This document shows positions 4,677 to 31,953 of a stretch of DNA of 45,232 nucleotides, piece after piece. Source of the DNA: Candidatus Contendobacter sp. (GTDB lineage: Bacteria; Pseudomonadota; Gammaproteobacteria; Competibacterales; Competibacteraceae). Below the pieces are notes generated by a model. It worked only from the letters and a program-made list of their open reading frames with translations. It ran no database searches and was not told where the DNA came from. Numbering within the stretch: position 1 is the first letter of the stretch; every line of letters starts with the position of its first letter. The translations under genes and the position numbers were made by a program. The stretch spans positions 1 through 45,232 of the forward strand of contig JAJHPN010000030.1 of NCBI GenBank assembly GCA_020890855.1. Reading direction: 5' to 3'.

Positions 4677-4895
4677 AGCCAGGCTTACTGATTGATCTGT
4701 TCGCTAGCGCACAGAAGCTTGTCAGCCATTTAGGGTAGGTTTCTCCCCATTCCAGAAAAAACGAAACAGCGCCCTGTTTTTGATCGAACGAGTCGTTGGG
4801 GTTGCTCTATCGTTGGCCTAAGAAAGGCTTCGCAACGACATGGAAGATTGAAGTTCACTCCGAAGCCGGAGACCGCAAACCCGAAGGTGAGCACT

Positions 4896-7800
4896 ATGAC
4901 TATTCACGAAACGCTGCTCCAGGTGAGGATGCGGATCCTAGGCAACGGCCTGGCCAAAAAGTACGTTGGCGACGAGCAACCCCTGCGGGCGGAACTGTTC
5001 AGCGCCATTCAGATGGAACAGCACGGCAAGGAGCTGGCCGCTTCGCATGTCTTGACGCCGCGTCAGGCGCGAGACCAACTGCTGGTTCGACTCACCGCCA
5101 ACGAGCGGACCCTGATCGACGTGTGTGCGCTGCTCATGGAAGCGGTGACGGCGAACCGGCGGATTGCGCCCGCCGGAGAATGGCTGCTCGATAATTTCTA
5201 TCTGATCGAAGAACAAATCCGCACCGCCAAGCGGCATCTGCCCAAAGGTTATAGCCGGGAGCTGCCGCGTCTGCGCAATGGCTCATCCGCCGGGTTGCCA
5301 CGGGTGTATGACCTCGCGCTGGAGATCATCGCCCACGGCGATGGCCGGGTGGACCCGGAAGCCCTCAGTCGCTTCGTCGCAGCCTATCAGAGCGTCACCC
5401 CGCTGAAGCTGGGTGAGTTGTGGGCCATTCCGATCATGCTGCGCCTGGCGCTGATCGAGAATCTGCGCCGCGTCGCGGCCCGGATCGCCGGCAGCCGCAC
5501 CGGCCATAACCTGGCCGACGAGTGGGCGGATCAGATGACGGCGATGGCGGAGAATGACCCAAAAAATCTGCTGTTGGTGATTGCGGACATGGCGCGATCG
5601 AACCCGCCGATGTCGAGCGCTTTTGTCGCCGAACTGGCGCGTCGGCTCCAAGGCCAGAGTTCCGCTTTGGCGTTGCCGCTGACCTGGATCGAGCAGCAAC
5701 TGGCCGAGTCGAACCTGACCATCGAACAGTTGGTGCAGGTCGAGAACCAGCAACAGGCCGGCGACCAGGTATCGATCAGCAACAGTATCGGCAGTCTCCG
5801 CTTTCTGGGAGCGATGGACTGGCGCGAGTTCGTCGAAACCATGAGTGTGGTCGAGAGTATCTTGCGTGACGACCCTGTCCGGGTGTACGGCAGAATGGAT
5901 TTTGCCAGCCGGGATCGCTATCGGCATGTCGTCGAGAAAGTCGCCAAAAACAGCCAAATTTCCGAAGCGGCGGTGGCTCACCACGCCATTGATCTAGCGC
6001 AGGAAGACGCGGTCAACCGCGACGGCGATCCGCGAACCGCGCATGTCGGGTTTTACCTGATTGACCGGGGATTGGCGCTGCTCGAACGGCGGGTCAAGGC
6101 GTGCCGGTGTACGCTGGAATCGCTGCAACATCAGGCTCGCCGGTTCCCGTTATTCCTGTATGTGGGCGGGATTGCGCTACTGACCGCGCTATTGACCGGG
6201 GGCCTGCTGACCAAAGCCCAGACTGACGACTGGCCTGCTGGGCTGCTCCCGGTGCTGGGTCTGATCGCGTTACTCGGCGTTAGTCATCTGGCGGTTGCTC
6301 TGGTGAACTGGCTGGCTACCTTGCTGGCGACGCCTTATCCGTTGCCGCGTCTCGACTTTTCCGCAGGCATTCCCCCGGAAACCCGGACTTTGGTGGTGAC
6401 CCCGACGATGCTCACCAGCGCCGCGAATATCGAGGATCTGATCGAGGCGCTGGAAGTTCGCTTCCTGGCTAATCGGGACGACAGCCTGCACTTTGGCTTG
6501 TTGACCGATTTTCGGGATGCGCCGGAGGAAACCCTGGCGGAGGATCAAGCGCTGCTGCGGTTGACCGTGCAACGGATTGATGCGCTCAATGAAAAATATC
6601 CGCAGGTGCGCGGCGACACGTTTTTCCTGTTTCACCGCCCGCGCCGCTGGAATCCGCAGGAACAAATCTGGATGGGTTACGAGCGCAAGCGCGGCAAACT
6701 GGCCGATTTGAACGCGCTGCTGCGCGGCGACTGCGGGGATCGCTTTGCGCGGGTGGTCGGCGATACCACCCTGTTATCCAATGTGAAATACGTCATTACC
6801 CTCGATACCGATACCCAGTTGCCGCGGGATGCCGCCCGCGAATTGATCGGCACGATGGCGCACCCGCTCAATCAGGCCCATTACGACGAGCGTCGGCAGC
6901 GGGTCAGCGCCGGTTACGGCATCCTGCAACCGCGCGTGGCCGTGAGTTTGCCCGGCGCCAATCGGTCGCACTATGCGCGGCTGTACGGGAGCGATGCCGG
7001 GATTGACCCCTATACGCAAGCGGTTTCCGATGTCTACCAGGATGGATTTCAGGAAGGCTCGTTCATCGGCAAGGGCATTTACGAGGTCGATGCCTTCGAG
7101 CAGGCGCTCAACGGCCGCTTTCCCGAAAACCGGATTCTCAGTCACGACCTGCTGGAAGGGTGCTACGCCCGGTCCGGGCTGGTCAGCGATGTGCAGTTGT
7201 ACGAAGACTATCCGGCCTGCTACAGCGCTGATGTCAGTCGCCGGTTCCGCTGGATTCGCGGCGACTGGCAGATTGCGCGCTGGTTGTTGCCGCGCGTTCC
7301 CGGTCTGGATGGCCGGTTGCAGAACAACCCGCTGTCGGCCCTGTCGCGCTGGAAACTGTTCGATAACCTGCGGCGCAGCCTAACCCCGGCGGCGTTGATC
7401 CTGCTGTTGATTCTGGGCTGGGCGGTAATGGCGTCGCCCGGATTCTGGACCGGGGCGGTCCTCGGCATCCTCCTGATCCCGGCCTTGGCGACCTCGCTTC
7501 TGAACGTGCTGCGCAAGCCCGGCGATGTGCGCTGGAGCCAGCATCTCGCCGCCGCCGCCCGCGCGACCGGCCACCATTTGGCTCAGGCCGCTTTCACCAT
7601 CGCCTGCCTCCCTTACGAAGCGTTCTTCAGTCTGGAGGCGATGGTTCGCACGATCTGGCGGATGCAGGTCAGCCACCAGCATTTGTTGGAATGGACCTCG
7701 TCGGGCGAACAGGATCGCCACCGCCGTGACTTGATCGCCTTCTACCGGATAATGCGAATGGCCCCCGCGCTGGCCGGGATCACCGCGCTAGGTCTGGCGA

Positions 7801-10800
7801 TAATCAAACCGGCGGTGTTGTTGGTCGCCGGGCCGCTGCTGGTGCTGTGGCTGGCTTCCCCGGCGCTGGCCTGGTGGATGAGTCGCCCACTAACCCATCG
7901 CGAAGCCCGCCTGACCGCTGATCAAACCCGCTTTCTCCATGCCGTGGCTCGTAAAACCTGGGCATTTTTTGAAACCTTCGTCGGCCCGACCGATCATTGG
8001 CTGCCGCCGGACAATGTTCAGGAGCATCCGGTGGCGGTGGTCGCGCATCGCACCTCGCCGACCAACATGGGCTTGTCATTACTCGCCAATCTGGCCGCCT
8101 ATGATTTTGGCTACCTTTCGGCGGGACGGCTGATTGAGCGGACCACCAGCGCACTGGACACGATGGTTGGGCTGGAACGGTATCGCGGCCACTTCTACAA
8201 CTGGTACGACACCCAGTCCCTGAAATCGCTACCGCCGGTCTACATTTCGTCGGTGGACAGCGGCAATCTCGCCGGCCACCTGCTGACCTTGCGGCAGGGG
8301 CTGCTCGGACTGATCGATGATCCGATCCTGAGTCCCCGCTATTTCGCGGGCCTCGGCGACACCTTCAATCTGCTGGTCGAGGCGGCGGAAGGCGCAATAC
8401 CGGCCTCGTTCGCACCCTTTCAGCAGACCCTGGCAGCAGCCACGACCGCGCCCCCGGCTACTCGGGTAGCGGCGCAGTTATGCCTTGACCAGCTGGCGAC
8501 CACCGCCGAGGCCGGAGTTCACGGTCTGGCGGCGAATGCCGGGGGTGAAGTCAGCGACTGGGCGCTGGCGCTGACCCGGCAATGTCGGGAGGCGCTCGAT
8601 GAATGGCTGTTCCTGGCGCCTGCAATCCCCCCGGCTTCGCTACCCCCCTTTGAAAAAGGAGGACAGGTGGAATTGACTGCCCAGGCCATCCCCACCCTGC
8701 GCCAATCGGCGGCGCTGGATCAGGCAGCCAGTGGCCGCGCCCGCGACCGGATCGCCGCGCTTGAACACTTGGCGTTGCAGGCCGGCGAACTGGCGCAAAT
8801 GGACTATGACTTCCTGTTTGACGAGACGCGGCATCTGCTGGCGATTGGCTACAACGTCAGTGAGCGGCGGCGGGATGCCAGCTACTACGACCTGCTGGCG
8901 TCGGAAGCCCGGTTGGGCAGTTTCGTCGCGATTGCTCAGGGTCAACTCCCGCAAGAGAGCTGGTTTGCCCTGGGCCGCTTGCTGATCATCGCCGGTGGCG
9001 AGCCGACCCTGCTGTCGTGGAGCGGCTCGATGTTCGAGTACCTGATGCCGTTGCTGGTGATGCCGACCTATGAAAACACCCTGCTGGATCAGACCGGTCA
9101 GGCGGCGGTGGCCCGGCAAATCGAATACGGCAAGCAGCGCGGCGTCCCCTGGGGCGTTTCGGAATCGGGCTACAACACGGTCGATGTCCAGCTCAACTAC
9201 CAGTACCGCGCCTTCGGAGTGCCCGGTTTGGGGCTGAAGCGCGGTCTGGCCGAAGATTTGGTCATTGCCCCATATGCCTCAGCGCTGGCGCTGATGGTCG
9301 CGCCCGAGGCCGCCTGCCTGAATTTACAACGCCTCGCCGCCGCCGGGTTTGCCGGACGATTCGGTTTCTATGAGGCGATTGACTACACGCCTTCCCGGGT
9401 GCCCCGCGGACAAACCAGCGCGGTGGTGCGGTCGTTCATGGCCCATCATCAGGGCATGAGTTTTCTGGCGCTGACCTACCTGCTGCTGAATCGGCCCATG
9501 CAGCAACGCTTCGTGGCGGCCCCGCTGTTCCAGGCGACCCTCCTGCTGCTCCAGGAGCGGATTCCCAAGGCTCCGGCGTTCTACTCGAACACTACCAGCC
9601 AGATCACCGATCTCCGGCCGACCGCCAGCAGTCAGGACGCGCCGATGCGGGTGTTCAACAACCCCAATACTCCGCTGCCGGAAGTCCAGTTGTTGTCGAA
9701 CGGTCGCTACCATGTGATGGTCACCAACGCCGGCGGCGGCTACAGCCGCTGGAAAGATCTCGCCGTGACCCGCTGGCGCGAAGACGCCACCTGTGACCCG
9801 TGGGGCGCCTTCTGTTACCTCCGCGACGTAGCCAGCGGCGCGTTCTGGTCGACCGCCTATCAGCCGACCTGCCATGTGCCGGACCACTATGAAGCGATTT
9901 TTTCCGAGGGCCGCGCCGAGTTTCGTCGCCACGACCACGAGATCGAGTCCTACACCGAGATTGTGGTCTCACCGGAAGACGACATCGAACTGCGCCGGGT
10001 CCGCATCAGCAACCGTTCCCGGATCCGCCGGGTCATTGAAATCACCAGTTATGCCGAAGTGGTTCTCGCTCCGCCCGCCGCTGACGCGCTGCATCCGGCG
10101 TTCAGCAACCTGTTTGTGCAAACCGAGATTCTCCACCCGCACCCGGCGATCCTGTGTACCCGCCGCCCGCGTTCCCGGGATGAAGCATCGCCCTGGATGC
10201 TGCACCTGATGGTGGTGCGCGGGGCCGAGTGTGGCCCGGTGTCTTACGAGACCGATCGGCTGCGCTTCATCGGTCGCGGTCATACCACCGCCGATCCTCA
10301 GGCGCTGACTCAGGACATGGCGCTTTCGGGTAGCGCCGGCTCGGTGCTGGATCCGGTGGTCGCGATCCGCTATCGGATCACCCTCGATCCCGAACAAACC
10401 GCGACCGTGGATCTGGTATCCGGGATCGGCGAGACCCGCGACAACGCCCTGACCCTGGTCGGCAAATACCAGGATCAGCGGCTGGCGGATCGGGTGTTTG
10501 ACCTGGCCTGGACCCACAGTCAGGTGGTGCTGCGCCAGCTCAACGCCACCCAGGCTGACGCCCAACTCTACGGGCATCTGGCCAGTTCGATCCTCTATGC
10601 CAACGCTACGCTGCGCGCCGAAACCAGCGTCCTCAGCCAGAATCGCCGGGGGCAATCCGGGCTGTGGGGCCACGCCGTCTCCGGCGATGTGCCGATTGTG
10701 CTGCTACAGATTACCGACTCCGCCAACATTGAGCTGGTCCACCAACTGGTGCAGGCCCACGCCTATTGGCGGCTGAAAGGCCTGACCGTGGATCTGGTGA

Positions 10801-13538
10801 TCTGGAACGAAAGTCAGAGCGGCTATCGGCAACAGCTCCATGATCAAATCCTGGGCTTGATTCCGGCGGGCGTTGAAGCCCATGTGATGGATCGGCCCGG
10901 CGGGATCTTCATTCGCCCGGCGGATCAGATTTCGAACGAGGATCGGATTCTGTTCCAAACGGTGGCGCGAGCGGTACTCAGCGACAGCCGGGGTACGCTG
11001 GCGGAACAGCTCAACCGGCGCAGGCCGCTGGAAAAGCGGCTGCCGCGCTTCCAGCCCACCGGCATCCACCGGGCTGAATCGTTGCCGTCTGCCGCCCTGC
11101 CGCGCCGCGATCTGATTCTCGGCAATGGTCTGGGCGGATTCGCCGCCGATGGCCGCGAGTACCTCATCACTCTGGCCCCTGGGCAGACCACGCCCGCGCC
11201 GTGGGTCAATGTGCTGGCGAATCCGAACTTCGGCACGGTCATCTCCGAGAACGGTGTGGCCTACACCTGGAGCGAGAACGCCCACGAGTTCCGCCTGACG
11301 CCCTGGCACAACGACCCGGTCAGCGACGCCAGCGGCGAAGCCTTTTACCTGCGCGACGAAGACAGCGGCCAGTTCTGGTCGCCGACGCCGCTGCCGGCTG
11401 GCGGCGCCACGCCCTATGTCAGTCGGCACGGCTTCGGTTACAGCGTCTTCGAACACGAAGAAAACGGCATCCACTCCGAGTTGTGGGTGTATGTCGCTGT
11501 GGATGCGCCGATCAAGTTCTCGGTGCTGAAGATTCGCAACGAATCGGGCCAAACCCGCCGATTGTCGGCGACCGGCTACATGGAGTGGGTGCTGGGCGAT
11601 CTGCGCCCGAAGTCAGTACTGCATCTGATTACCGAAATCGACCCCACCAGCGGGGCGCTGTTCGCTCGCAATCCGTACAACACCGAGTTCGCCGACCGTT
11701 TGGCCTTTTTCGACGTGGATGATGTGATGCGGACCTTTAGCGGCGACCGCACCGAGTTCATTGGCCGGAACGGCACGCTGCGTCAGCCGGCGGCGATGAC
11801 CCGGGCCGGACTGTCCGGCAAGGTCGGCGCGGCGCTGGATGCCTGCGCGGCGATTCAGGTGAACTTTGAACTGGCCGCTGGGCAAGAGCATGAAATCGTG
11901 TTCCGGCTGGGCGTGGCGGGTCGGCGCGGCGCGGATGACGCCAGCACCCTGGTGCATCGCTGCCGGGGCGCATCAGCGGCGCGGACGGCGCTGGACGCGG
12001 TGCGGCGCCACTGGCAACACACCCTCGGCGCGGTGCAGGTGGCAACGCCGGACCCAGCCCTCAATGTGCTGGCGAACGGCTGGCTGGTGTACCAGACCCT
12101 GGCGTGCCGGCTGTGGGCGCGCAGCGGTTACTACCAGTCGGGCGGCGCGTTTGGGTTCCGCGACCAGTTGCAGGATTTGATGGCGCTGATCCACACCGAA
12201 CCGGGTCTGCTGCGTGAACATTTGCTGCGTTGTGCGGGCCGCCAGTTCCGGGAAGGCGATGTGCAGCATTGGTGGCATCCGCCGTCCGGTCGGGGGGTGC
12301 GAACCCACTGTTCGGATGATTACCTGTGGCTGCCGTTGGCGACCTGCCGCTATGTGCTGACCACCGGTGATACCGGGGTGCTGGATGAACCGGCGCCGTT
12401 TCTGGACGGTCGCCCGGTCCCGGCAGCGGAGGACTCCTATTACGATCTGCCGGTCCGGTCGGAAGCATCGGCCAATTTGTACCAGCACTGTGTCCACGCC
12501 ATCCTGCACGGACTCCGCTTTGGCGAGCATGGCCTGCCGCTGATCGGTTCCGGAGACTGGAACGACGGCATGGATCGGGTCGGGAGAGAGGGCCGGGGCG
12601 AAAGCATCTGGCTGGGCTTTTTCCTCTATGACGTGCTGATCCGCTTCACCGAAATAGCCCGGTTACGGGGGGATCTGTCCTTCGTCGAGCGCTGCCAGCG
12701 CGAGGCGGTGGCCGTCCGTCAGAATCTGGAGCAGCAGGGCTGGGATGGCGGCTGGTATCGCCGCGCCTATTTCGATGACGGGACCCCGCTGGGGTCGGCG
12801 AGCAATGCCGAATGCCAGATTGATTCGATCGCCCAGAGCTGGTCGGTGCTGTCCGGGGCCGGCGATAGCAACCGGGTGCGCCTGGCGATGGCAGCTTTGG
12901 ATACGCGACTGGTGCGCCGCGATCAGGGCCTGATTCAATTGCTGGACCCGCCCTTTGACACCTCGCCGTTGAATCCGGGCTATATCAAAGGCTACGTTCC
13001 CGGCGTGCGGGAGAATGGCGGCCAATACACCCATGCCGCGATCTGGGCGGCGATGGCGTTGGCGGCCCTGGGCGACCGGCAGCGGGCCTGGGAACTGTTC
13101 GCCATGATCAATCCGGTGAACCATGCCCGTTCCCCGGAAGCGGTGGCGATTTACAAGGTGGAACCCTATGTGGTCGCCGCCGATGTGTATGCGGTGGCGC
13201 CCCACACCGGGCGCGGCGGCTGGACCTGGTACACCGGATCGGCGGGCTGGCTGTACCGGCTGATCGTGGAATCGCTGCTGGGGCTGCGGCTGGAAGGGAA
13301 CACCCTGCATTTCGCGCCGTGTCTGCCGGTGGACTGGCCGGGATTCAAACTGCGCTACCGCTATCGGGAAACGACCTACGCCATTGTTGTCACCCAAACT
13401 GCCGACGCAACCGGCGAAATGCGGGTCACGGTGGATGGGGTTGAGCGGGATGATGCCGTGATTCCGCTGGTGGACGACCGCCGGGAACACACGGTTGAGG
13501 TACGCTATCGAACAGATGCGGGTCGGGAAAGATCGTAA
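4896..13538 (+). CDS. ndvB: cyclic beta-1,2-glucan synthase (NdvB/ChvB/Cgs type)
   Basis: 2,880 aa from ATG 4896 (RBS GAAGGTGA; the track ORF begins at TTG 4848). GT region with 'ITLDTDTQLPRDAA'. Hydrophobic TM blocks. C-terminal GH94-like glycan phosphorylase blocks 'FREGDVQHWWHPPSGRGVRT' and 'GSGDWNDGMD'. Size and layout match NdvB/Cgs. Confidence 0.9.
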   Translation: MTIHETLLQVRMRILGNGLAKKYVGDEQPLRAELFSAIQMEQHGKELAASHVLTPRQARDQLLVRLTANERTLIDVCALLMEAVTANRRIAPAGEWLLDNFYLIEEQIRTAKRHLPKGYSRELPRLRNGSSAGLPRVYDLALEIIAHGDGRVDPEALSRFVAAYQSVTPLKLGELWAIPIMLRLALIENLRRVAARIAGSRTGHNLADEWADQMTAMAENDPKNLLLVIADMARSNPPMSSAFVAELARRLQGQSSALALPLTWIEQQLAESNLTIEQLVQVENQQQAGDQVSISNSIGSLRFLGAMDWREFVETMSVVESILRDDPVRVYGRMDFASRDRYRHVVEKVAKNSQISEAAVAHHAIDLAQEDAVNRDGDPRTAHVGFYLIDRGLALLERRVKACRCTLESLQHQARRFPLFLYVGGIALLTALLTGGLLTKAQTDDWPAGLLPVLGLIALLGVSHLAVALVNWLATLLATPYPLPRLDFSAGIPPETRTLVVTPTMLTSAANIEDLIEALEVRFLANRDDSLHFGLLTDFRDAPEETLAEDQALLRLTVQRIDALNEKYPQVRGDTFFLFHRPRRWNPQEQIWMGYERKRGKLADLNALLRGDCGDRFARVVGDTTLLSNVKYVITLDTDTQLPRDAARELIGTMAHPLNQAHYDERRQRVSAGYGILQPRVAVSLPGANRSHYARLYGSDAGIDPYTQAVSDVYQDGFQEGSFIGKGIYEVDAFEQALNGRFPENRILSHDLLEGCYARSGLVSDVQLYEDYPACYSADVSRRFRWIRGDWQIARWLLPRVPGLDGRLQNNPLSALSRWKLFDNLRRSLTPAALILLLILGWAVMASPGFWTGAVLGILLIPALATSLLNVLRKPGDVRWSQHLAAAARATGHHLAQAAFTIACLPYEAFFSLEAMVRTIWRMQVSHQHLLEWTSSGEQDRHRRDLIAFYRIMRMAPALAGITALGLAIIKPAVLLVAGPLLVLWLASPALAWWMSRPLTHREARLTADQTRFLHAVARKTWAFFETFVGPTDHWLPPDNVQEHPVAVVAHRTSPTNMGLSLLANLAAYDFGYLSAGRLIERTTSALDTMVGLERYRGHFYNWYDTQSLKSLPPVYISSVDSGNLAGHLLTLRQGLLGLIDDPILSPRYFAGLGDTFNLLVEAAEGAIPASFAPFQQTLAAATTAPPATRVAAQLCLDQLATTAEAGVHGLAANAGGEVSDWALALTRQCREALDEWLFLAPAIPPASLPPFEKGGQVELTAQAIPTLRQSAALDQAASGRARDRIAALEHLALQAGELAQMDYDFLFDETRHLLAIGYNVSERRRDASYYDLLASEARLGSFVAIAQGQLPQESWFALGRLLIIAGGEPTLLSWSGSMFEYLMPLLVMPTYENTLLDQTGQAAVARQIEYGKQRGVPWGVSESGYNTVDVQLNYQYRAFGVPGLGLKRGLAEDLVIAPYASALALMVAPEAACLNLQRLAAAGFAGRFGFYEAIDYTPSRVPRGQTSAVVRSFMAHHQGMSFLALTYLLLNRPMQQRFVAAPLFQATLLLLQERIPKAPAFYSNTTSQITDLRPTASSQDAPMRVFNNPNTPLPEVQLLSNGRYHVMVTNAGGGYSRWKDLAVTRWREDATCDPWGAFCYLRDVASGAFWSTAYQPTCHVPDHYEAIFSEGRAEFRRHDHEIESYTEIVVSPEDDIELRRVRISNRSRIRRVIEITSYAEVVLAPPAADALHPAFSNLFVQTEILHPHPAILCTRRPRSRDEASPWMLHLMVVRGAECGPVSYETDRLRFIGRGHTTADPQALTQDMALSGSAGSVLDPVVAIRYRITLDPEQTATVDLVSGIGETRDNALTLVGKYQDQRLADRVFDLAWTHSQVVLRQLNATQADAQLYGHLASSILYANATLRAETSVLSQNRRGQSGLWGHAVSGDVPIVLLQITDSANIELVHQLVQAHAYWRLKGLTVDLVIWNESQSGYRQQLHDQILGLIPAGVEAHVMDRPGGIFIRPADQISNEDRILFQTVARAVLSDSRGTLAEQLNRRRPLEKRLPRFQPTGIHRAESLPSAALPRRDLILGNGLGGFAADGREYLITLAPGQTTPAPWVNVLANPNFGTVISENGVAYTWSENAHEFRLTPWHNDPVSDASGEAFYLRDEDSGQFWSPTPLPAGGATPYVSRHGFGYSVFEHEENGIHSELWVYVAVDAPIKFSVLKIRNESGQTRRLSATGYMEWVLGDLRPKSVLHLITEIDPTSGALFARNPYNTEFADRLAFFDVDDVMRTFSGDRTEFIGRNGTLRQPAAMTRAGLSGKVGAALDACAAIQVNFELAAGQEHEIVFRLGVAGRRGADDASTLVHRCRGASAARTALDAVRRHWQHTLGAVQVATPDPALNVLANGWLVYQTLACRLWARSGYYQSGGAFGFRDQLQDLMALIHTEPGLLREHLLRCAGRQFREGDVQHWWHPPSGRGVRTHCSDDYLWLPLATCRYVLTTGDTGVLDEPAPFLDGRPVPAAEDSYYDLPVRSEASANLYQHCVHAILHGLRFGEHGLPLIGSGDWNDGMDRVGREGRGESIWLGFFLYDVLIRFTEIARLRGDLSFVERCQREAVAVRQNLEQQGWDGGWYRRAYFDDGTPLGSASNAECQIDSIAQSWSVLSGAGDSNRVRLAMAALDTRLVRRDQGLIQLLDPPFDTSPLNPGYIKGYVPGVRENGGQYTHAAIWAAMALAALGDRQRAWELFAMINPVNHARSPEAVAIYKVEPYVVAADVYAVAPHTGRGGWTWYTGSAGWLYRLIVESLLGLRLEGNTLHFAPCLPVDWPGFKLRYRYRETTYAIVVTQTADATGEMRVTVDGVERDDAVIPLVDDRREHTVEVRYRTDAGRERS

Positions 13539-13550: not shown

Positions 13551-15545
<1,995 letters not shown>

Positions 15546-22475: not shown

Positions 22476-22602
22476 TTTCCCGATAGGTTTTGTCCTCTTC
22501 AAAGGCCAAAAACCACCCTGTTCTTCATACCTGCGAAAGCGGGTATCCAGTGGTTCAGCGGCCACCTGGATTCCCGCATTCGCGGGAATGACGAAAACCT
22601 AT
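22476..22602 (-). mobile_element. MITE-like repeat, copy C (inverted relative to copy B)
   Basis: The reverse complement of 22483-22602 aligns without gaps to 13551-13670 (106/120 identical). It generates a spurious '...IPAFAGM...' ORF (22499-22684). Confidence 0.8.
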
Positions 22603-23489: not shown

Positions 23490-23569
23490 CTCTCGATTTC
23501 CTTATAGTCGCTGATGACTCAATGGCTTAAGTGTGGTCAGCCCTGGACTTTCCCAATCCTGCATACTCT

Positions 23570-23959
23570 TCACGTCTCGAGGCTCGCGCAGACTTTCTGC
23601 AGTAGTGCCCGCACTTCCTTACCAAGGGCATGCACTTCCGGTTTGTCGACCAATTGCAACACAGCCGCAGGATCCATGAACGCAACCGTGATGCTTCCAT
23701 CGTCTTCTTCGCGCACGACCACATTGCACGGTAGCAGCAACCCGATGTCGGGGTCGGCCTCGATCGCGCGATGGGCGAGCGGCGGGTTGCATGCGCCGAG
23801 TATGCGGTACGGCCGATGTTCGATGTTGAGCTTTGCTTTCAACGTCGCCTTGAGATCGATATCGGTGAGTACCCCGAAGCCTTCATTTTTCAGAGCCTCG
23901 GTGACTCTCATGACGGCGATATCGAACGGCAGCTTTAACTGAGTGCTGAATCCGTACAT
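23570..23959 (-). CDS. DUF302 domain protein
   Basis: 129 aa. '[45 protein letters not shown]' is typical of DUF302. Confidence 0.8.
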
Positions 23960-24060
23960 GAATTGACTCCTGCTGGTGGTGGTGAAACGATTAATGCTAT
24001 TCGTACATCGGCAATTTCTAATTCTGCTTCTTTCCCGGCAGCTTCAACTGTCGGTTCAGT

Positions 24061-24226
24061 TGCACCCAATGCGGGAGAAAGAATCACGCCCTGCGAGTAG
24101 AGCGCACCGGCGGCCAGCGGGATGGCAAAGGCGCTATAGCTGGTCGCCCATACCAGATTTTTAATCATCTTGTTATAGGTGGCCTTGGAAAGCTCGGTTT
24201 CTCCACTGGCAATATAGGGTAGGGTC
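24061..24226 (-). pseudogene. C-terminal relic of a heavy-metal (P1B, CopA-like) P-type ATPase
   Basis: After an in-frame TAG, the minus strand reads 'TLPYIASGETELSKATYNKMIKNLVWATSYSAFAIPLAAGALYSQGVILSPALGA'. This corresponds to the last two TM helices of P1B ATPases. No upstream body is present, and the sequence degenerates afterwards. Confidence 0.7.
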
Positions 24227-24256
24227 TAAAAAGGTGTGGCTTCATCATCCAGCACG

Positions 24257-24571
24257 TTACTGATCCCACATCACATCGCATTTTTCTGTTGCAGCGGCTG
24301 CCAATAACTCGATCAACGGGAAAGCCCGCTGCGCTAAATCGACCGGGCTTTCGTCCGCGTCGTCGTCTTCAACATCTTCTGCCGCCTTCGGGACCGTTGC
24401 CTTATGGGCCGCGACGGCGGTTCGCAAGCGCTCCAGTGCGGCAGGCACCTCGTCGGCCAGGAGGGCGCTCGGCACAGTTCCGCTGTGTCCCATCAGCTTG
24501 AGCAAGGTGATAGCGATATCGCCAAATATCACGATATCGGCGTGTGCTTTGGTTCGAAAGGTAACGATCAT
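24257..24571 (-). CDS. DUF1840 domain protein
   Basis: 104 aa from ATG 24571 (RBS GAGGAGG). 'MIVTFRTKAHADIVIFGDIAITLLKLMGHSG' is a typical DUF1840 N-terminus. The track ORF is longer (136 aa). Confidence 0.75.
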   Translation of the reverse strand: MIVTFRTKAHADIVIFGDIAITLLKLMGHSGTVPSALLADEVPAALERLRTAVAAHKATVPKAAEDVEDDDADESPVDLAQRAFPLIELLAAAATEKCDVMWDQ

Positions 24572-24656
24572 TAAAACCTCCTCAAGACAACTTCTGTCCT
24601 CTTTTACCCTGCCCAGTTCTGATCCCCTTGGAGTGCGGCCTGGAAATGTCCAACCC

Positions 24657-25082
24657 CTATTTGACAACCAGGTTGTTCTTCACCGATGCCACACCCTGGT
24701 TATTGCGCGCCACCTCAGACGCCCGATCGAGACTGAGCTGTGAATCGACGGTCCCGCTCAGCGTCACCACGCCGTTGGTGGTAGTCACGTCAATCTGGAA
24801 GACCTTGAGCACCGACTCCGCCAGGATTTCAGTCTTGATCCTGGCGGTGATCGCCGCGTCTTCCAGATAATCTCCGGCTCGATCCGCTTTTTTGTCCATG
24901 GACTCCTTGGTCACCTCGAGCTGATTGCCCATTTGCTTAGCGGTCTGATCGATCTTGCGACCAGCCTCCTCGGCGCCCCCCTCCTTTTGACAGCCAGCGA
25001 GTCCGAGACTGGCCGACAGGCAGGCGGCCACAACCAGGATTCCTGACAGGGCCATCGGCGTGTAGGCATTTTTCTTTTGCAT
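24657..25082 (-). CDS. BON-domain lipoprotein
   Basis: 141 aa from ATG 25082. Lipobox 'LGLAGC-QK'. C-terminal BON segment 'DAAITARIKTEILAESVLKVFQIDVTTTNGVVTLSGTV...VASVKNNL'. Confidence 0.85.
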   Translation of the reverse strand: MQKKNAYTPMALSGILVVAACLSASLGLAGCQKEGGAEEAGRKIDQTAKQMGNQLEVTKESMDKKADRAGDYLEDAAITARIKTEILAESVLKVFQIDVTTTNGVVTLSGTVDSQLSLDRASEVARNNQGVASVKNNLVVK

Positions 25083-25198
25083 GGTTGATTCCTCAATAGG
25101 GTTTGTCAGGAGCCGTCTTTCAATAAGCGCCAGACAGGTCGATTTCCAGCCGCGAGACCACCTGTCCAGGTGCTTTGTACCACTCGGCAAAGCGCGTC

Positions 25199-25375
25199 TT
25201 AGTGGTCTTTCTTGATCTCCGCCTTAGCATCACCCACGCCTGCCTGAACCTTGCCGGCGTTCTTTTGGAGCTTTCCTTCTGCTTCCAGTTCGTCATTGCC
25301 GACGACATAACCGGCGACTTCATTCACTTTGCCTTTGGCTTCTTTGCAGCGACCTTTGACCTGTTGTTTGTTCAT
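25199..25375 (-). CDS. CsbD-family general stress protein
   Basis: 58-aa ORF, absent from the supplied track because it is under 60 aa. My translation is MNKQQVKGRCKEAKGKVNEVAGYVVGNDELEAEGKLQKNAGKVQAGVGDAKAEIKKDH, with the classic 'KG..KE..GK...D..L..EG' CsbD pattern. Confidence 0.8.
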   Translation of the reverse strand: MNKQQVKGRCKEAKGKVNEVAGYVVGNDELEAEGKLQKNAGKVQAGVGDAKAEIKKDH

Positions 25376-25461
25376 GTGTCTGTCCTGTCAATGAATGGAG
25401 CCATCACCCAGCGCGGACTGTGATTCCCAGCGCTGAGGGGAAACATACGCGAGCGACGAAT

Positions 25462-25527
25462 GGCGGTCGGTTCGACAACGCACACAGGCGACGCCTTTTC
25501 TTTTTGTGCGCTACCGAACCGACCGCC
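25462..25527. promoter_or_regulatory. 13-bp perfect inverted repeat in a divergent promoter region
   Basis: GGCGGTCGGTTCG (25462-25474) and CGAACCGACCGCC (25515-25527), separated by 40 nt. Located between csbD (minus strand) and the methyltransferase gene (plus strand). Confidence 0.5.
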
Positions 25528-25650
25528 ACGACCGCTTCGGTCAAGCTCGCGGTGTACCGAGATTCAACACTTGACGGCGGTGACCAGGCGATCGACTTGG
25601 TCACGGATCGGCCAAGTGAGTCCTGATCCTGTCTTTCGGAGGTACCCTCG

Positions 25651-26820
25651 ATGAGCCAATGCGCAACCGTTTTCGGGGCTTCGGCCTCTGACCGACTCGC
25701 TCGCCTGATTCAGAAGCACGTCTTCGGCGACCGGGTCAAAATCCCGTTGGAAATTCGGCTCTGGGGTGGTCGCACCTATCGCTTTGGCGCTGGCGAGCCG
25801 GCGGTCAAGATCCTGGTGAAGGATCGCAAAGGTTTGAGCGCGCTGCGCCGGCTCGATGAGTTGCGCATCTGCGAGGCCTATATGAACGGGAGTCTGGATG
25901 TCCAGGGGGATATGCTGGGCTTCGCCAGTCTGCGCCCCGGCCTGCACGACCGTCATCCACTGCACGACCTGTGGCAACGGGTCGCGCCCTGGTTCGTCGG
26001 GAGGATCAAGACCGACCGGCACGCCATCGCCGCGCACTACGACTTTGCCAGCGACTTCTATCTCCGGTTCCTGGACCCGACCCGCTGTTATTCGCAGGCC
26101 GTGTTTGAGCGGGATGATGAAGACCTCGAGACGGCACAGCGCCGCAAGCTGGATTTCGCGATCGATGCCTGTCGACTCCAGCCGGGGGATCGTGTGCTGG
26201 ATGTCGGGGGCGGTTGGGGAAGCTTCACGGAACAGGCCGGCGCGCGCGGGATTCAGGTCACCTCACTGACGATCTCCTGCGAGTCGGAGGCCTTCCTGAC
26301 CGACTTGATCGAACGGCGTCAACTGCCCTGCCGGGTGGTGAACCAGGACTTTCTGGCCTACCGCTCGCCCGAACCCTATGACGCCATCGTCATTCTGGGC
26401 GTGATGGAGCATCTGCCCGATTATCCGGCGGTGCTGCAGCAGATCCAGCGGTTGCTGAAACCGGGTGGGCGCGTCTATCTCGACGCCAGCGCGTCCCGGG
26501 ACAAGTATGACAAGCCCCACTTCATCGCCCGCTACATCTTTCCGGCGGACCACGCCTTTCTCTGCCTGCACGACTTCCTGCGCGCGGTGGCAAAGAGTCC
26601 GCTGGATGTGCTGACGGTCGACAACGATCGCCACAACTATTTCCTCACCTGTCGGGCCTGGGCTGAAAACCTGGACGCGGCCCGTGACGAGATCATCGCC
26701 CGCTGGGGAGAGACACTCTACCGGCGCTTCCGGCTCTATCTCTGGGGCTCGGCCCAGGCCTTTCTGAGCGGCGGCGCGGACGCCTTTCGGGTGGTGCTGG
26801 AACGTCCGCTGGAGGCATGA
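25651..26820 (+). CDS. class I SAM-dependent methyltransferase, cyclopropane-fatty-acyl-phospholipid-synthase-like
   Basis: 389 aa. SAM motif I 'VLDVGGGWGSF'. 'AIVILGVMEHLPD', 'LKPGGRVYLD'. The N-terminal part resembles CMAS-family enzymes ('ICEAYMNGSLDVQGDM'). Confidence 0.8.
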   Translation: MSQCATVFGASASDRLARLIQKHVFGDRVKIPLEIRLWGGRTYRFGAGEPAVKILVKDRKGLSALRRLDELRICEAYMNGSLDVQGDMLGFASLRPGLHDRHPLHDLWQRVAPWFVGRIKTDRHAIAAHYDFASDFYLRFLDPTRCYSQAVFERDDEDLETAQRRKLDFAIDACRLQPGDRVLDVGGGWGSFTEQAGARGIQVTSLTISCESEAFLTDLIERRQLPCRVVNQDFLAYRSPEPYDAIVILGVMEHLPDYPAVLQQIQRLLKPGGRVYLDASASRDKYDKPHFIARYIFPADHAFLCLHDFLRAVAKSPLDVLTVDNDRHNYFLTCRAWAENLDAARDEIIARWGETLYRRFRLYLWGSAQAFLSGGADAFRVVLERPLEA

Positions 26821-26823
26821 AGG

Positions 26824-27015
26824 GTTGGGCAGACTGGCTGGCCACCCGATGGTAAAACGCGGGTGACCGTGGATGGCGTCGAGCAACCCGACCCGGCGAT
26901 TCCCCTGGTCGACGACCGTCGGGAGCATGCGGTCGAGGTGAGACCATCCAATGGTGCGGTGAGGGCAATGCTTGATCACCATCAACCGCTTTCAAACGCA
27001 CAGGTTCCAACATGA
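26824..27015 (+). pseudogene. 3'-terminal relic of a second cyclic-glucan-synthase gene
   Basis: The frame reads 'VGQTGWPPDGKTRVTVDGVEQPDPAIPLVDDRREHAVEVRP...'. Compare the NdvB C-terminus 'VTQTADATGEMRVTVDGVERDDAVIPLVDDRREHTVEVRY' at 13390-13510: 23 of 29 residues are identical from RVTVDGV onward. The frame stays open to TGA 27013-27015, overlapping the next gene's ATG. Confidence 0.75.
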
Positions 27016-28085
27016 CTCCACAAATCAAGAAGTCGCTGATACTCGCGACCATGGCTATCGCCGCCGCCGTGATCGGGGTGCTGGCCTGGACCGCGTTGAA
27101 ACCGTCCGGTCCCGGTGCCGGATTCGTCAGCGGCAACGGCCGCATCGAGGCCACTGAGATCGATATCGCCACCAAGCTCGCTGGACGGGTGCTGGACATC
27201 ATGGTTAACGAAGGCGATTTCGTGTATGCCGGCCAGCCCCTGGCGCAGATGCAGATTGACGTCCTCGATGCCCAGCGCGACGAGGCGCGGGCGCAGTCCG
27301 GGCAGGCCGTCACTGCGGTCGCCAGCGCCGAGGCCCAGGTCGCCGCACGCCAAAGCGACAAGGCCGCCGCACAGGCCATGGTGGGGCAGCGCGAGAGCGA
27401 TCTGGATGCGGCGCAGCGACGGTTTGCCCGCTCTGAGCCGCTGTCCAGACAGGGGGCCGTGTCGATGCAACAAGTCGACGACGACCGTGCGCGCGTGCAT
27501 GGCGCGGAGGCCACACTGACCGGGGTGAAGGCCCAGGTCGCCACCGCTGAGGCGGCGATCAGAGCCGCGCAAGCGCAGGTCGTCGGTGCGGGTTCCGGCG
27601 TCACCGCGAGTGAGGCGACCATTGCCCGCGTTGAGGCCGACATCGAGGACAGTCAGCTCAAGTCGCCGCGCGATGGCCGGGTGCAATATCGCGTCGCCCA
27701 GCCCGGCGAGGTTCTGGCGAGTGGCGGCAATGTTCTCAATCTGGTGGATCTCAGCGACGTTTACATGACGTTCTTTCTGCCGGAGACCGCAGCCGGCAAG
27801 GTGGCGCTGGGCAGCGAAGTCCATATCGTGCTGGACGCTGCGCCGCAGTTTGTGATTCCGGCGCAGGTGTCCTACGTCGCCAGCACCGCGCAGTTCACAC
27901 CCAAGACCGTGGAAACGGCCAGCGAGCGGCAGAAGCTGATGTTCCGCGTCAAGGCGCAGATCAGCCGCGAGTTGCTGCAAAAACACCTGAAGCTGGTCAA
28001 GACCGGCCTGCCCGGCATGGCCTGGCTCAAGCTCGATCCGCAGGCGCAGTGGCCGGCCAACCTGGCGATCAAGGTTCCCGAATGA
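27012..28085 (+). CDS. HlyD-family membrane fusion protein (YhiI/YbhG-like)
   Basis: 357 aa. N-terminal TM anchor, '[40 protein letters not shown]' lipoyl-like hairpin, long coiled coil, and '[20 protein letters not shown]' at the C-terminus. Confidence 0.85.
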
Positions 28086-30826
28086 CCCTGGAGTCCTCTC
28101 CTCCGTCACCCGTCGCCCGCCTGACCGGTGTTGGTCTGCGCTACGGCAAGACCGTGGCGCTGGACGCCATCACCCTGGACATCCCCGCCGGGCGCATGGT
28201 TGGCCTGATTGGCCCGGACGGCGTCGGCAAATCCAGCCTGCTGTCGCTGCTGGCCGGGGCCCGCGCGGTGCAGCAAGGCAGCGTACAGGCTCTGGGCGGC
28301 GACATGGCGAGCGCCGGCCATCGGAAAAAGGTCTGCCCGCAGATCGCCTACATGCCGCAGGGTCTGGGCAAGAACCTCTATCCGACCTTGTCGGTGGAGG
28401 AGAACCTGCAATTTTTCAGTCGCCTGTTCGGTCACAACGCCGCCGAGCGCCGCCGGCGCATTGACCAACTGACCGGCAGCACCGGCCTGTCTCCGTTTCT
28501 GGCGCGCCCGGCGGGCAAGCTGTCCGGCGGCATGAAACAGAAACTGGCTCTGTGTTGTGCGCTGATTCATGACCCGGCTTTCCTGATTCTGGACGAGCCG
28601 ACCACCGGCGTCGATCCCTTGGCCCGCGCCCAGTTCTGGGATCTGATCCAGCATATTCGCAGCGAGCGCTCTGACATGAGCGTGATCGTAGCGACTGCCT
28701 ACATGGACGAGGCGCAGCGCTTCGACGAGCTGGTGGCGATGGATGCCGGCAAGGTGCTGGCGACCGGCACGCCGGCCGAACTGCTCGAACGCACCGGCAG
28801 TGACTCGCTGGACGCAGCGTTCATCGCGTTACTGCCGGAGGAGAAACGGCGCGACCATCACGAGGTGACGATTCCACCGCTCACCGCCGGGGATAGCGCC
28901 GAGATCGCTATTGAGGCCACTGACCTTACCATGCGCTTTGGCGATTTCGTCGCGGTTGACCACGTCAGTTTCCGCATCCGCCGGGGCGAGATCTTCGGCT
29001 TCCTCGGCTCCAACGGCTGCGGCAAGTCCACCACCATGAAGATGCTGACTGGCCTGCTCCCGGCCAGCGAAGGCCGTGCGTCATTGTTCGGGTGTGCGGT
29101 TGATCCCAAGGACATCGCCACCCGGCGGCGGGTGGGCTACATGTCGCAGGCGTTCTCGCTGTATTCGGAACTGTCGGTGCGCCAAAACCTGGTGCTGCAC
29201 GCCCACCTGTTTTCGGTGCCGGAAGCGAACATCCCGGCGCGGGTAGACCAGATGGCTCAGCGTTTCGGCTTGGGCGAAGCGCTCGACACGCTGCCCGACC
29301 ACTTGCCGCTGGGCATCCGCCAGCGGTTGTCGCTGGCGGTGGCGATGGTGCATCAACCGGAGCTGCTCATCCTGGATGAGCCGACTTCGGGCGTGGACCC
29401 CATCGCCCGCGACCGCCTCTGGCAATTGATGATCGACCTGGCGCGCAATGACCAGGTCACGATCTTCATCTCCACCCATTTCATGAACGAAGCGGGGCGC
29501 TGCGACCGCATCTCGCTGATGCACGCCGGCCGGGTGCTAGTGACCGACGTCCCGGCCGATCTGGTGCGCCAACGGGGGGTTGCCACACTGGAAGATGCCT
29601 TCATCGGCTACCTGGAAGATGCCGGCGCGGCGACGCCGGTGCAAAAACCACCGGTGGCATCGCCGCCAGTCGCGCCGACGGCTCCCCCGCGCCGTTTCCC
29701 CTTCAGCCTGGGCCGCGCTTGGAGCTATTGCCTGCGCGAGACCCTGGAGCTGCAACGCGACCCGGTGCGCGCCACCATGGCCCTGCTGGGGACAGCGATC
29801 CTGATGTTCGTCTTCGGCTACGGCATCAGCCTGGACGTGGAGAATCTGAGCTACGCGGTGCTGGATCGCGACCAGACGCTGCTGAGTCAGAACTACGCAC
29901 TGAATCTGTCCGGCTCGCGCTACTTCATCGAACGCCCGCCGATTACCGATTACACGGATCTCGACCGGCGGATGCGGGCCGGCAAACTCGCGCTGGCGAT
30001 TGAAATTCCGCCCGGTTTCGGGCGCGACATTGCACGCGGGCATCCGGTGCAGATCGGCACCTGGGTGGATGGCGCCATGCCGGTGCGCGCCGAGACGGTG
30101 CAAGGCTATATGCAGGGGATGCATCAGGGCTGGCTGTTGGACATGGCCGCGCGGCGGCTGGGTCAGGATGTCGCCGCTGGCCCGGCGACCATTGCGACGC
30201 GCTTTCGCTACAACCCTGATGTGCGAAGTCTGCCGGCGATGGTGCCCGCAATCATCCCGATGCTGCTGCTGATGATCCCGGCGATGCTGGCGGCGCTCTC
30301 GGTGGTGCGTGAGAAAGAGCTGGGTTCGATCATCAATCTCTACGTCACCCCGATCACCCGCAGCGAGTTCCTGCTCGGTAAGCAGTTGCCCTATATCGTG
30401 CTGGCGATGCTCAACTTCGGGTTGATGACACTGCTGGCGATCACCATCTTCGGGGTGCCGGTCAAGGGCAGCTTTTTGGCGCTGACGGCGGGGGCGCTGC
30501 TCTTTGTGATCTTCTCGACCGGCTTTGGCCTGTTCGCCTCCACCTTCACCCGTAGCCAGATCGCGGCGCTCTTCGTGACGATGATCGGCACCATGATCCC
30601 GACCATCCAATTCGCCGGCATGTTGAACCCGGTGTCCTCGCTCGAAGGCGTCGGCTTTTTCATCGGTCGCATTTACCCGGCCTCACACTTCCTGACCATC
30701 AGTCGTGGCGTGTTCAACAAGGCGCTGGGATTCGCCAGCCTGCACGCCTCGTTCTGGCCGCTGCTGCTGGCGGTGCCGGTGATCCTGGGCCTGTCCATCG
30801 TGCTGCTGAAGAAGCAGGAGACCTGA
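28082..30826 (+). CDS. rbbA: fused double ABC ATPase + ABC-2 permease (RbbA/YhiH type)
   Basis: 914 aa from ATG 28082 (ATGA overlap with the MFP gene). Walker A 'GPDGVGKSS' and 'GSNGCGKST'. Signatures 'LSGGMKQK' and 'LPLGIRQR'. Six C-terminal TM helices. Confidence 0.85.
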
Positions 30827-30828
30827 TC

Positions 30829-31953
30829 ATGCCGCATCTTGCCACGATCTACCGCTTGGGCATCAAGGAATTGTGGAGCCTGGTGCGCGACCCGATGATG
30901 CTGGTGCTGATCGCCTACACCTTCACCATATCGATCTATGTGGCCGCCACGGCGATGCCGGAGACCTTGCACAAGGCACCCATCGCTATCGTCGATGAGG
31001 ACGGTTCACCGTTGTCCGGGCGGATCGTCACCGCCTTCAATCCGCCGCGCTTCAATCCGCCAGTGATGATTCCCTTGACCGGCATCGATGCGGGCATGGA
31101 CGCTGGCGATTACACCTTTGTGCTGGATATCCCGCCGGATTTCCAGCGCGACGTGCTGGCCGGGCGGTCGCCGGCGATCCAGCTCAACGTCGACGCCACG
31201 CGCATGAGCCAAGCCTTCACCGGCAGCAGCTACGTCCAGCACATGGCGCTGGGCGAGATCAACGAGTTCGTCCAAGGCTACCGGGGCAGCGCCCCGCCGC
31301 CGGTGGAGCTGGCCCTGCGGGCGCGCTTCAACCCCAATCTGGAGCAATCCTGGTTCGGCGCACTGATGGAGATCATCAACAACGTCACTTTATTGTCGAT
31401 CATCCTGACCGGCGCGGCGCTGATCCGCGAGCGTGAGCACGGCACCATCGAGCATCTGCTGGCGATGCCGGTCACGCCCGCCGAGATCATGCTGTCCAAG
31501 GTCTGGGCGATGGGCCTGATGGTGCTGTTGGCCGCCGCCATTGCGCTGGTGCTGGTTGTGCAGGGCGTACTGCGCATCCCGGTCGAAGGCTCGGTGGCGC
31601 TGTTCCTGGCTGGGGCCGCGCTACATCTGTTCGCCACCACCTCGCTGGGCATTTTCATGGCTACGCTGGCGCGTTCGATGCCGCAGTTCGGGATGCTCGC
31701 GGTGCTGATCCTGCTGCCGCTGCAACTGCTTTCGGGCAACTCGACCCCGCGCGAGAGCATGCCCCAGTTGGTGCAGGCGGTGATGCTGGCCGCGCCAACC
31801 ACGCACTTCGTCGCCGCCGGTCAGGCCATCCTGTACCGGGGCGCGGGCCTCGACGTGGTGTGGCCGCAGTTCCTCGCCCTGACCGCGATCGGCGCGGTGT
31901 TTTTCACCATTGCGCTGAACCGCTTTCGCAGCACCATCAGTCAGATGGTCTGA
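30829..31953 (+). CDS. ABC-2 type permease (YhhJ-like)
   Basis: 374 aa. N-terminal TM helix, periplasmic loop, and five C-terminal TM helices. It follows rbbA by 2 nt. Confidence 0.8.
   Translation: MPHLATIYRLGIKELWSLVRDPMMLVLIAYTFTISIYVAATAMPETLHKAPIAIVDEDGSPLSGRIVTAFNPPRFNPPVMIPLTGIDAGMDAGDYTFVLDIPPDFQRDVLAGRSPAIQLNVDATRMSQAFTGSSYVQHMALGEINEFVQGYRGSAPPPVELALRARFNPNLEQSWFGALMEIINNVTLLSIILTGAALIREREHGTIEHLLAMPVTPAEIMLSKVWAMGLMVLLAAAIALVLVVQGVLRIPVEGSVALFLAGAALHLFATTSLGIFMATLARSMPQFGMLAVLILLPLQLLSGNSTPRESMPQLVQAVMLAAPTTHFVAAGQAILYRGAGLDVVWPQFLALTAIGAVFFTIALNRFRSTISQMV

Follow-up and report, generated by a model that had tools for sequence, protein, structure and literature searches.

An orphan 3' end of a cyclic beta-1,2-glucan synthase gene in front of the yhiI-rbbA-yhhJ exporter operon of Candidatus Contendobacter sp.

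In Escherichia coli K-12, the intact gene icd and the short C-terminal pseudogene icdC are found approximately 13-15 kb apart in the arrangement icd, e14, icdC, and their 3' ends differ mainly by conservative or synonymous changes (PMC13626634). Orphan 3' ends have also been described for the effector/immunity loci of type VI secretion systems (T6SS) and for Rhs loci, where they were attributed to homology-facilitated illegitimate recombination (PMC5361080). Here we describe an orphan gene end in a stretch of 45,232 nucleotides from Candidatus Contendobacter sp. (Gammaproteobacteria, Competibacteraceae; contig JAJHPN010000030.1), which is called the window throughout. The window contains an intact ndvB/cgs-type gene for a cyclic beta-1,2-glucan synthase (4848..13538, plus strand; Pfam GH94_b-supersand, Glyco_hydro_94 and Glycoamylase) and, directly in front of an ABC exporter operon of the yhiI-rbbA-yhhJ type, the relic of an ndvB 3' end. 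Like icd and icdC, the intact ndvB and its orphan C-terminal counterpart lie approximately 13 kb apart and differ mainly by synonymous changes. In the glucan synthases of the NdvB/ChvB/Cgs family (GT84 + GH94), the homologous counterpart of the relic is the extreme C-terminus, past the GH94 catalytic domain.

The relic is part of an open frame of 64 codons, which starts at 26821 directly after the stop codon of a methyltransferase gene (26818-26820), is in the same frame as this stop codon and ends with a TGA at 27013-27015 that overlaps the ATG of the yhiI-like gene at 27012. An earlier note on this DNA had already described the frame and its overlap in this way, and its count of 23 identical residues out of 29 between RVTVDGVEQPDPAIPLVDDRREHAVEVRP and RVTVDGVERDDAVIPLVDDRREHTVEVRY is correct. 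Comparison of the C-terminal 200 amino acids of the intact NdvB with the whole window by tblastn gave a sole significant second site at 26851-26964 (26 of 38 residues identical, E=5e-10; next-best match E=1.2), and no further pieces of ndvB were detected in the window beyond the intact gene and the relic. The homology to the true NdvB C-terminus that the note had proposed does exist, but its counterpart within the intact gene is located at 13413-13526 and not at 13390-13510. All matches of the relic among 5.8 billion database proteins are C-termini of NdvB/GH94 proteins (best match P0001, E=1.3e-11), belonging either to large GH94 proteins or to contig-edge fragments of such proteins, and the related matches carry PF03633 / PF17167. 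With only 38 residues the match is short, as a chance or low-complexity similarity would be. However, the E-values obtained in the window and in the protein database rule out such a similarity, and so does the fact that the homology runs on through the non-coding tail of the relic to other ndvB loci. We therefore regard chance as practically excluded.

Not the entire 64-codon frame stems from ndvB, as the note had assumed. The ndvB-derived part is 26854-27015 (162 nt, 54 codons), and the DNA upstream of it consists of the gene for the methyltransferase, which is of the CMAS type, and its flank. The first 11 codons (26821..26853, plus strand), which encode RVGQTGWPPDG, represent the native 3' flank of the CMAS gene, as revealed by alignment to Candidatus Contendibacter odensensis (L176) and to L175. 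L176 possesses two CMAS ends, one from a full CMAS copy and one from a 141-nt CMAS-end fragment beside an insertion sequence (IS), and in both of them the homology to the flank in the window extends 33 nt past the CMAS stop, up to 26853. Beyond this position the two L176 copies stay together for approximately 50 nt, whereas the window switches to ndvB-like sequence. Since the flank matches up to 26853 in two independent copies and then diverges from the window, the breakpoint can be placed at 26853/26854 and the joint is derived in the lineage of the window. The CMAS flank and the ndvB of another Competibacteraceae contig (L179) have 11 identical nucleotides in common (GGGCAGACTGG). These were considered as a possible junction microhomology, but this was rejected, since the CMAS-flank homology with Contendibacter runs past it.

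Within the ndvB-derived part, a core and a tail can be distinguished. The core (26854..26943, plus strand; KTRVTVDGVEQPDPAIPLVDDRREHAVEVR) corresponds by homology to residues ~2858-2887 of the NdvB encoded by the intact gene. An alignment of 27 codons with the intact ndvB contains 23 nucleotide differences, with 4/3/16 at codon positions 1/2/3, and 13 codons differ synonymously and five non-synonymously, so that the differences are indeed mostly of the synonymous type, as stated in the note. The tail (26944..27015, plus strand; the 72 nt after 'VEVR') is the former spacer between ndvB and yhiI, open in frame up to the TGA that overlaps the yhiI start codon. It shares 74-78% nucleotide identity with the ndvB ends of L169 and L170, and the differences are distributed 3/7/6 over the codon positions. 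Elsewhere, this DNA is located after an earlier stop (L179) or in another frame (L178), and it is out of frame or behind the stop in L180, too. The even spread over the codon positions and the position in another frame or behind a stop in L178 and L179 argue for a spacer and against a constrained coding sequence. The tail closes with ~30 nt (about 26983-27011) that correspond to the conserved yhiI leader and Shine-Dalgarno region, ...CACAGGTTCCAACATGAC, and the leader motif CACAGG(A/T)TC.A.CATGAC is common to the window, to Thiocapsa (CACAGGATCCATCATGAC) and to Lamprocystis-type yhiI loci. The ATGA overlap itself, which the note had taken for an ancestral coupling, is specific to this lineage, as other taxa have a gap of 77-278 nt or a small open reading frame (ORF) at this place.

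The stretch 26854-27015 is a pseudogene remnant, namely a truncated homolog with a definable breakpoint, without a start codon and never called as a gene. It is not a functional ndvB/cgs gene, since it lacks a full-length ORF that has its own start and encodes glycosyltransferase and GH94 domains. There is neither an ATG nor a convincing ribosome-binding site, and no gene has been called here in eight same-species contigs, across which the relic is 100% identical. Rfam gave no match at E<=1 in 26600-27200, and the predicted fold of the relic region is not unusual (z-score of the minimum free energy: -0.23). A scan of 25400-27400 detected no sigma-70-like promoter, and one minus-strand terminator-like site inside yhiI, which is no more than expected by chance. 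Overall, nothing in the sequence suggests that the relic has a function as a gene today.

The relic is a diverged homolog and not a recent duplication of the intact gene, as the note had recognized, for its nucleotide identity to the window's own ndvB is only 72%, compared with 83-91% to the ndvB ends of other genomes. For the core (81 nt), the values are 91% to L171a, 83-85% to L169, L170, L171b and L172, and 72% to the own ndvB. At the protein level, 25 of the 27 core residues are identical to P0146, almost no amino acid change is private to the relic, at most three of the 27 residues differ from real NdvB proteins, and the frame is free of stops. Neutral decay was simulated with the criterion of at most three replacements in the core and no stop codon. 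With the divergence set to 0.21 substitutions per site, one half of the corrected distance at third positions that separates the ndvB genes of the window and L180, this criterion was reached in 0.2% of the runs (P=0.002). With 0.05 substitutions per site, a value on the scale of the Contendibacter split, it was reached in 60% of the runs (P=0.6). Since the core is almost undecayed when measured against this simulation, the parent ndvB should have been intact and under selection until recently, and the almost undecayed protein sequence likewise suggests that the relic is young. The available copies of the relic in the window's species are all identical, and the relic is too young for visible decay. 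In Thiocapsa, two orthologous ndvB relics (L011 and L101) can be compared, which show 11 non-synonymous versus five synonymous codon differences and are approximately 80% identical to each other, versus 75% at the third positions of the adjacent yhiI. These relics evolve neutrally.

YhiI was used to scan species-representative genomes and metagenomes, and the resulting loci were searched for NdvB. Among the matches listed, about 160 related loci possess the order yhiI-rbbA-yhhJ. An intact ndvB is adjacent at one locus (L009), ndvB relics are present in the window, L011, L101, L169, L170 and L179, and the adjacency of ndvB and yhiI is restricted to Chromatiaceae and Competibacteraceae. The ~150 other yhiI loci, mostly from Betaproteobacteria, are without ndvB and most of them are headed by a gene for an outer-membrane factor. 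In L009, a metagenome-assembled genome (MAG) of Thiodictyon, an ndvB of 2,926 codons, the product of which is 74% identical to the NdvB of the window at the amino acid level, stands directly upstream of yhiI-rbbA-yhhJ and ends 278 nt before yhiI. In Thiocapsa imhoffii (L011) and in L101, an ndvB relic ends 77 nt upstream of yhiI, and a 5' part that is still visible in L101 is missing in L011. This Thiocapsa relic is independent of the one in the window. Three further loci from Competibacteraceae (L169, L170 and L179) have kept an ndvB end with the tail, the leader of yhiI and its first bases, read as ATGACC(CCACAG) or TTGAC, after which unrelated DNA begins, while yhiI itself is gone. Thus, the full ndvB in Thiodictyon as well as the relics and leader remnants in Thiocapsa and Competibacteraceae support the inference of the note that the end of an ndvB-type gene once directly preceded yhiI.

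Some additional features of these loci deserve mention. Between ndvB and yhiI, L009 contains an ORF of 87 codons (9741-10004), the TGA of which overlaps the yhiI ATG. This small ORF is conserved (87-100 amino acids, no Pfam match) and also present in L010 (3312-3608) and L026 (9375-9680, minus strand). In Thiodictyon and Thiocystis it separates yhiI from ndvB or from the ndvB relic, and in L026 an ndvB remnant and the ORF follow each other a few kb away from the yhiI operon; the window does not possess such an ORF. The loci that have lost yhiI continue differently after the ndvB end and yhiI leader, namely with a Fic/HsdR-like region in L169 (224-2325), with a DUF2281-PIN toxin-antitoxin module in L170 (150-1013) and with a G+C-rich palindrome in L179 (~1750 onward). 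L169 and L170 rejoin in a common segment that leads to a truncated MscS gene and DUF2254. The three contigs represent a variable islet at a fixed junction.

Judged by these loci, ndvB followed by yhiI-rbbA-yhhJ appears to be an ancestral gene order that is now almost erased. The note had gone further and suggested a functional link between the glucan synthase and the RbbA-type exporter. The basis of this suggestion is an adjacency that is limited to one clade and has been broken repeatedly, which would indicate such a link only weakly, and a literature search found nothing relevant linking rbbA, yhhJ or yhiI to ndvB. One could assume that ndvB and yhiI-rbbA-yhhJ formed one operon in the ancestor of Chromatiaceae and Competibacteraceae, that the pump served as an envelope exporter of cyclic beta-1,2-glucan and that ndvB 3' fragments survive as an embedded promoter or leader of the pump, but we consider this improbable. 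If it were true, the pump would be a non-homologous counterpart of the alphaproteobacterial NdvA/ChvA. The order ndvB-yhiI-rbbA-yhhJ is the sole available hint to a substrate of the poorly understood RbbA/YhhJ-type exporters.

The interval between the intact ndvB and the relic (13538-26820) had been taken in the note for the possible result of one insertion. Instead, it is a mosaic of blocks native to Competibacteraceae, most of them 90-97% identical to Ca. Contendibacter odensensis, that have been rearranged several times. The stretches 15237-22192 and 23554-26853 share 90-97% nucleotide identity with this organism (L176 and L177), the homology being interrupted between 22192 and 23554, and homologs of the DUF2254 protein with 86-90% identity are present in Ca. 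Contendibacter odensensis and in MAGs of Competibacteraceae. In Contendibacter, the N-ATPase operon is followed by MscS-DUF2254 and then by the block CMAS-CsbD-BON-DUF1840-(P-type ATPase)-DUF302, which has the opposite orientation to that in the window. L180, a MAG of Competibacteraceae, has the order ndvB-MscS-DUF2254 with no N-ATPase operon in between, and its presence there implies that the linkage of ndvB and DUF2254 is older than the relic. Two 127-nt repeats resembling repetitive extragenic palindromes or miniature inverted-repeat transposable elements (REP/MITE-like) form an inverted pair that brackets exactly the N-ATPase operon and DUF2254. The left arm (13551..13677, plus strand) follows directly after the stop of the intact ndvB and is 89% complementary to the right arm (22476..22602, minus strand), which was found by a repeat search. 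Pfam searches on the tested ORFs of the interval (13.6-26.8 kb) identified N-ATPase subunits, DUF2254, SDR, DUF1840, BON and CMAS; DUF302, CsbD and an S30AE-like gene are known in addition from the gene calls made on contigs of the same species. A GC profile does not delimit a foreign 13-kb block. It shows only a mild dip to 0.54-0.55 at 22-25.5 kb, where the small stress genes are located, and a clear island signature is missing, while the G+C content at third codon positions (GC3) increases on the right side of the relic. Identities between the two ndvB ends are confined to scattered runs of 6-8 nt, and no repeat spanning both junctions was reported. No crossover point could be called inside the intact ndvB, because the sliding-window identity to L180, L178, L179, L171 and L009 drops in the last ~170 nt in all pairs.

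Between the window and L180, third-position identity is 68% for ndvB (4848-13538) and 85% for DUF2254 (20847-22220), and for CMAS it is 89% between the window and Contendibacter. The alleles of ndvB thus go back much further than the DNA around them, which suggests allele exchange or hidden paralogy in Competibacteraceae. In a related MAG contig of 805 kb (L171), 3' ends of ndvB occur twice in a stretch of less than 10 kb. One of these copies is 5'-truncated and split by an IS (DDE_Tnp_1; 5235-10219), and the second end is located on the other strand (19925-20113). In addition, a ~100-nt ndvB 5' fragment (14034-14132) is fused beside a crp ortholog. This shows that ndvB has been broken up repeatedly in this group. 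The short called proteins P0004, P0011, P0014 and P0018 were considered as further relics and rejected, since they go back to the IS-split ndvB (L171), to frameshifted ndvB genes from long reads (L172 and L173) and to a contig edge (L174); yhiI is adjacent at none of their loci.

Taken together, 26854-27015 is very probably the non-functional remnant of a full-length ndvB, comprising its last ~30 conserved codons and the ndvB-yhiI spacer, the parent of which stood upstream of yhiI-rbbA-yhhJ in the same orientation. A single joint of illegitimate recombination would have connected position 26853, which is 33 nt behind the CMAS stop, to a site in ndvB approximately 54 codons before the end of its frame (26854), and everything of the parent ndvB 5' of this joint would have been lost. 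The parent would have been a different allele or copy from the intact gene at 4848-13538, with selection at the protein level until shortly before the break, and the joint would have arisen later than the split from Ca. Contendibacter odensensis. Today, the exporter operon would have the remnant as its 5' leader, with the last ~30 nt of the remnant as the native ribosome-binding region of yhiI, and yhiI is probably transcribed by read-through from CMAS or from an unrecognized promoter. With regard to the origin of the parent, we favor, at roughly even chances, an exchange between two types of loci circulating in Competibacteraceae, namely ndvB-yhiI-rbbA-yhhJ and ndvB-(N-ATPase)-MscS/DUF2254. 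The relic would then mark the edge of an imported yhiI operon, or it would be a resident 3' end displaced by an incoming ndvB block. Such an exchange is favored because ndvB and DUF2254 differ so much in third-position identity (68% vs. 85%) between the same two genomes, because GC3 rises to the right of the joint while no yhiI or yhhJ relatives of >=90% identity were seen outside this species, which is a weak test, and because the DUF2254-linked ndvB in L169 and L170 carries a yhiI leader.

Several points weigh against this history. Neither a genome that keeps the arrangement of the parent (CMAS ... full ndvB-yhiI) nor a donor was found, so that the event is reconstructed rather than observed. 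Pfam on the tested ORFs and the gene calls revealed no integrase, transposase or phage genes in or beside the interval, and no tRNA is located there, so that a mechanistic signature of an import is missing. The identity values of the relic rest on only 81-162 nt. A cluster look-up revealed no yhiI or yhhJ relatives with >=90% identity outside the species of the window, but the 95%-identical CMAS of Contendibacter, used as a positive control, was not co-clustered either; the best matches elsewhere reach ~80-83% among those listed. Moreover, the counts of yhiI loci refer to these matches, and further yhiI orthologs may exist in Competibacteraceae. Finally, L171 with its two ndvB ends within 10 kb keeps alive the explanation by a resident second copy.

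According to the latter explanation, one ndvB preceded N-ATPase/DUF2254 and a second ndvB preceded yhiI, and a deletion, or an inversion plus deletion, removed everything from 33 nt behind CMAS to codon -54 of the second gene. The mostly synonymous differences between relic and intact gene imply that both were once functional, the two 3' ends in L171 provide a similar arrangement, the inversion of the CMAS block relative to Contendibacter documents that intragenomic rearrangement did occur, and REP-like repeats are present at the block borders. However, no locus with two intact copies was seen in Competibacteraceae, the yhiI leader behind the DUF2254-linked ndvB in L169 and L170 points to one locus and not to two paralogs, and the GC3 step, like the lack of close relatives of yhiI among Competibacteraceae, agrees with a separate origin of the right-hand part. 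Loss of a resident copy is therefore possible but doubtful. The geometry of an intact gene, 13.3 kb of DNA and an orphan 3' end with mostly synonymous differences also resembles icd ... e14 ... icdC (PMC13626634) and the displaced 3' ends in T6SS/Rhs loci (PMC5361080), as would be expected if a single ndvB had taken up one 13.3-kb block in its 3' end, or if a site-specific element of the e14/icd type had brought a replacement 3' end. Yet the two 3' ends overlap and have no more than 72% identity, which a plain insertion cannot yield, and the interval is devoid of integrase and phage genes. It is, moreover, a mosaic with N-ATPase and DUF2254 inside the 127-nt inverted repeats and with a stress-gene block that is inverted relative to Contendibacter. 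Since, in addition, the linkage of ndvB and DUF2254 predates the relic (L180) and the intact ndvB shows no crossover point, we consider a single insertion very unlikely.

Even less credible is a role of the frame as a genuine small gene, or as an upstream ORF that is translated and kept by its ATGA coupling to yhiI. Such a gene could draw on the 64 open codons that end in the ATGA overlap, on GTG codons at 26863 and 26869 and on the persistence of ndvB remnants upstream of yhiI in at least two lineages. On the other hand, the frame has no ATG and no convincing ribosome-binding site and was never called, its first 11 codons are CMAS flank, it is broken or ends earlier in L178, L179, L180, L011 and L101, and the relics in Thiocapsa stop 77 nt before yhiI and evolve neutrally.

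The relic is surrounded by genes of assignable families. The CMAS-type S-adenosylmethionine-dependent methyltransferase gene (25651..26820, plus strand; Pfam PF02353, E=5.6e-54) encodes a protein with 95% amino acid identity to the Contendibacter ortholog, which is inverted relative to DUF2254. The exporter operon of the ABC-2 type consists of the genes for a YhiI-like membrane-fusion protein (27012..28085, plus strand; Pfam HlyD_3 / HlyD_D23), the start of which (MTPxxKK) is kept in orthologs, for an RbbA-like fused ABC ATPase/permease (28049..30826, plus strand; two ABC_tran domains and ABC2_membrane_3) and for a YhhJ-like ABC-2 permease (30829..31953, plus strand; ABC2_membrane_3). Together with a second system of the order outer-membrane efflux protein, membrane-fusion protein, MacB-like ABC protein and FtsX, this operon forms two export systems back to back (27012-36993). 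The GC3 of both systems amounts to 0.79-0.87, that of the genes to the left of the relic to 0.63-0.78. The DNA to the right of the ABC operons yielded no genes of mobile elements, and tRNA genes were not found anywhere in the window.

Within the interval there is a second gene scar. A remnant of 134 nt (24061-24194) is 97% identical to the 3' part of a gene for a P-type ATPase of 670 amino acids, which is intact in Ca. Contendibacter odensensis (L176, 18431-20443) between DUF1840 and DUF302. The N-ATPase operon of the window includes a gene similar to ribosome-hibernation factors (19566-19937; Ribosomal_S30AE) between the genes for the alpha and gamma subunits, where Contendibacter adds a bacterial eRF1-like (baeRF) gene, with PPK2 and a duplicated atpG 3' fragment after gamma (L176, 4373-5932). 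Orphan duplicate 3' ends of CMAS, beside an IS, and of atpG exist in Ca. Contendibacter odensensis (L176, 12203-12343 and 8182-8430), and duplicated gene ends at block borders recur in Competibacteraceae. Further copies of the REP/MITE-like repeat are located upstream of ndvB (4567-4651) and near the start of the window (622-706), and a Contendobacter sp. contig carries the element as well (L178, 4350-4473, 94%).

The DNA downstream of ndvB is a rearrangement hot spot in Competibacteraceae; at least five different continuations follow the same gene end. The scar in the window offers a dated and base-precise breakpoint (26853/26854) in an uncultured lineage of glycogen-accumulating wastewater bacteria. 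It also holds a lesson for annotation, since a 64-codon open frame proved to be a pseudogene fragment plus a yhiI leader and not a gene.

Compared with the known systems, the relic shares with the glucan synthases of the NdvB/ChvB/Cgs family nothing but ~30 conserved codons out of ~2,900, and unlike them it has no catalytic domain and no start codon. The operon behind it has the same three-gene architecture and the same Pfam domains as yhiI-rbbA-yhhJ of the E. coli type, whereas most betaproteobacterial yhiI operons among the matches listed carry an outer-membrane factor gene at the head and no ndvB nearby. The e14 element is a site-specific prophage with integrase and att sites that supplies a replacement 3' end, whereas the interval in the window contains neither a recombinase nor phage genes. 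In further contrast to icdC, the relic is joined on its left to the 3' flank that belongs to a methyltransferase gene of ordinary kind, and the interval is a chromosomal mosaic native to the family. As in the T6SS and Rhs loci, the 5' gene body might have been a homologous anchor for incoming DNA, and the resident 3' end displaced by it would survive beside its former downstream gene. However, those loci are polymorphic toxin arrays under diversifying selection, while the window contains a single remnant of a housekeeping-type glucan synthase gene, with no evidence of adaptive or recurrent displacement at this site. The scar in the window is an ordinary gene remnant and as such an instance of an already known phenomenon.

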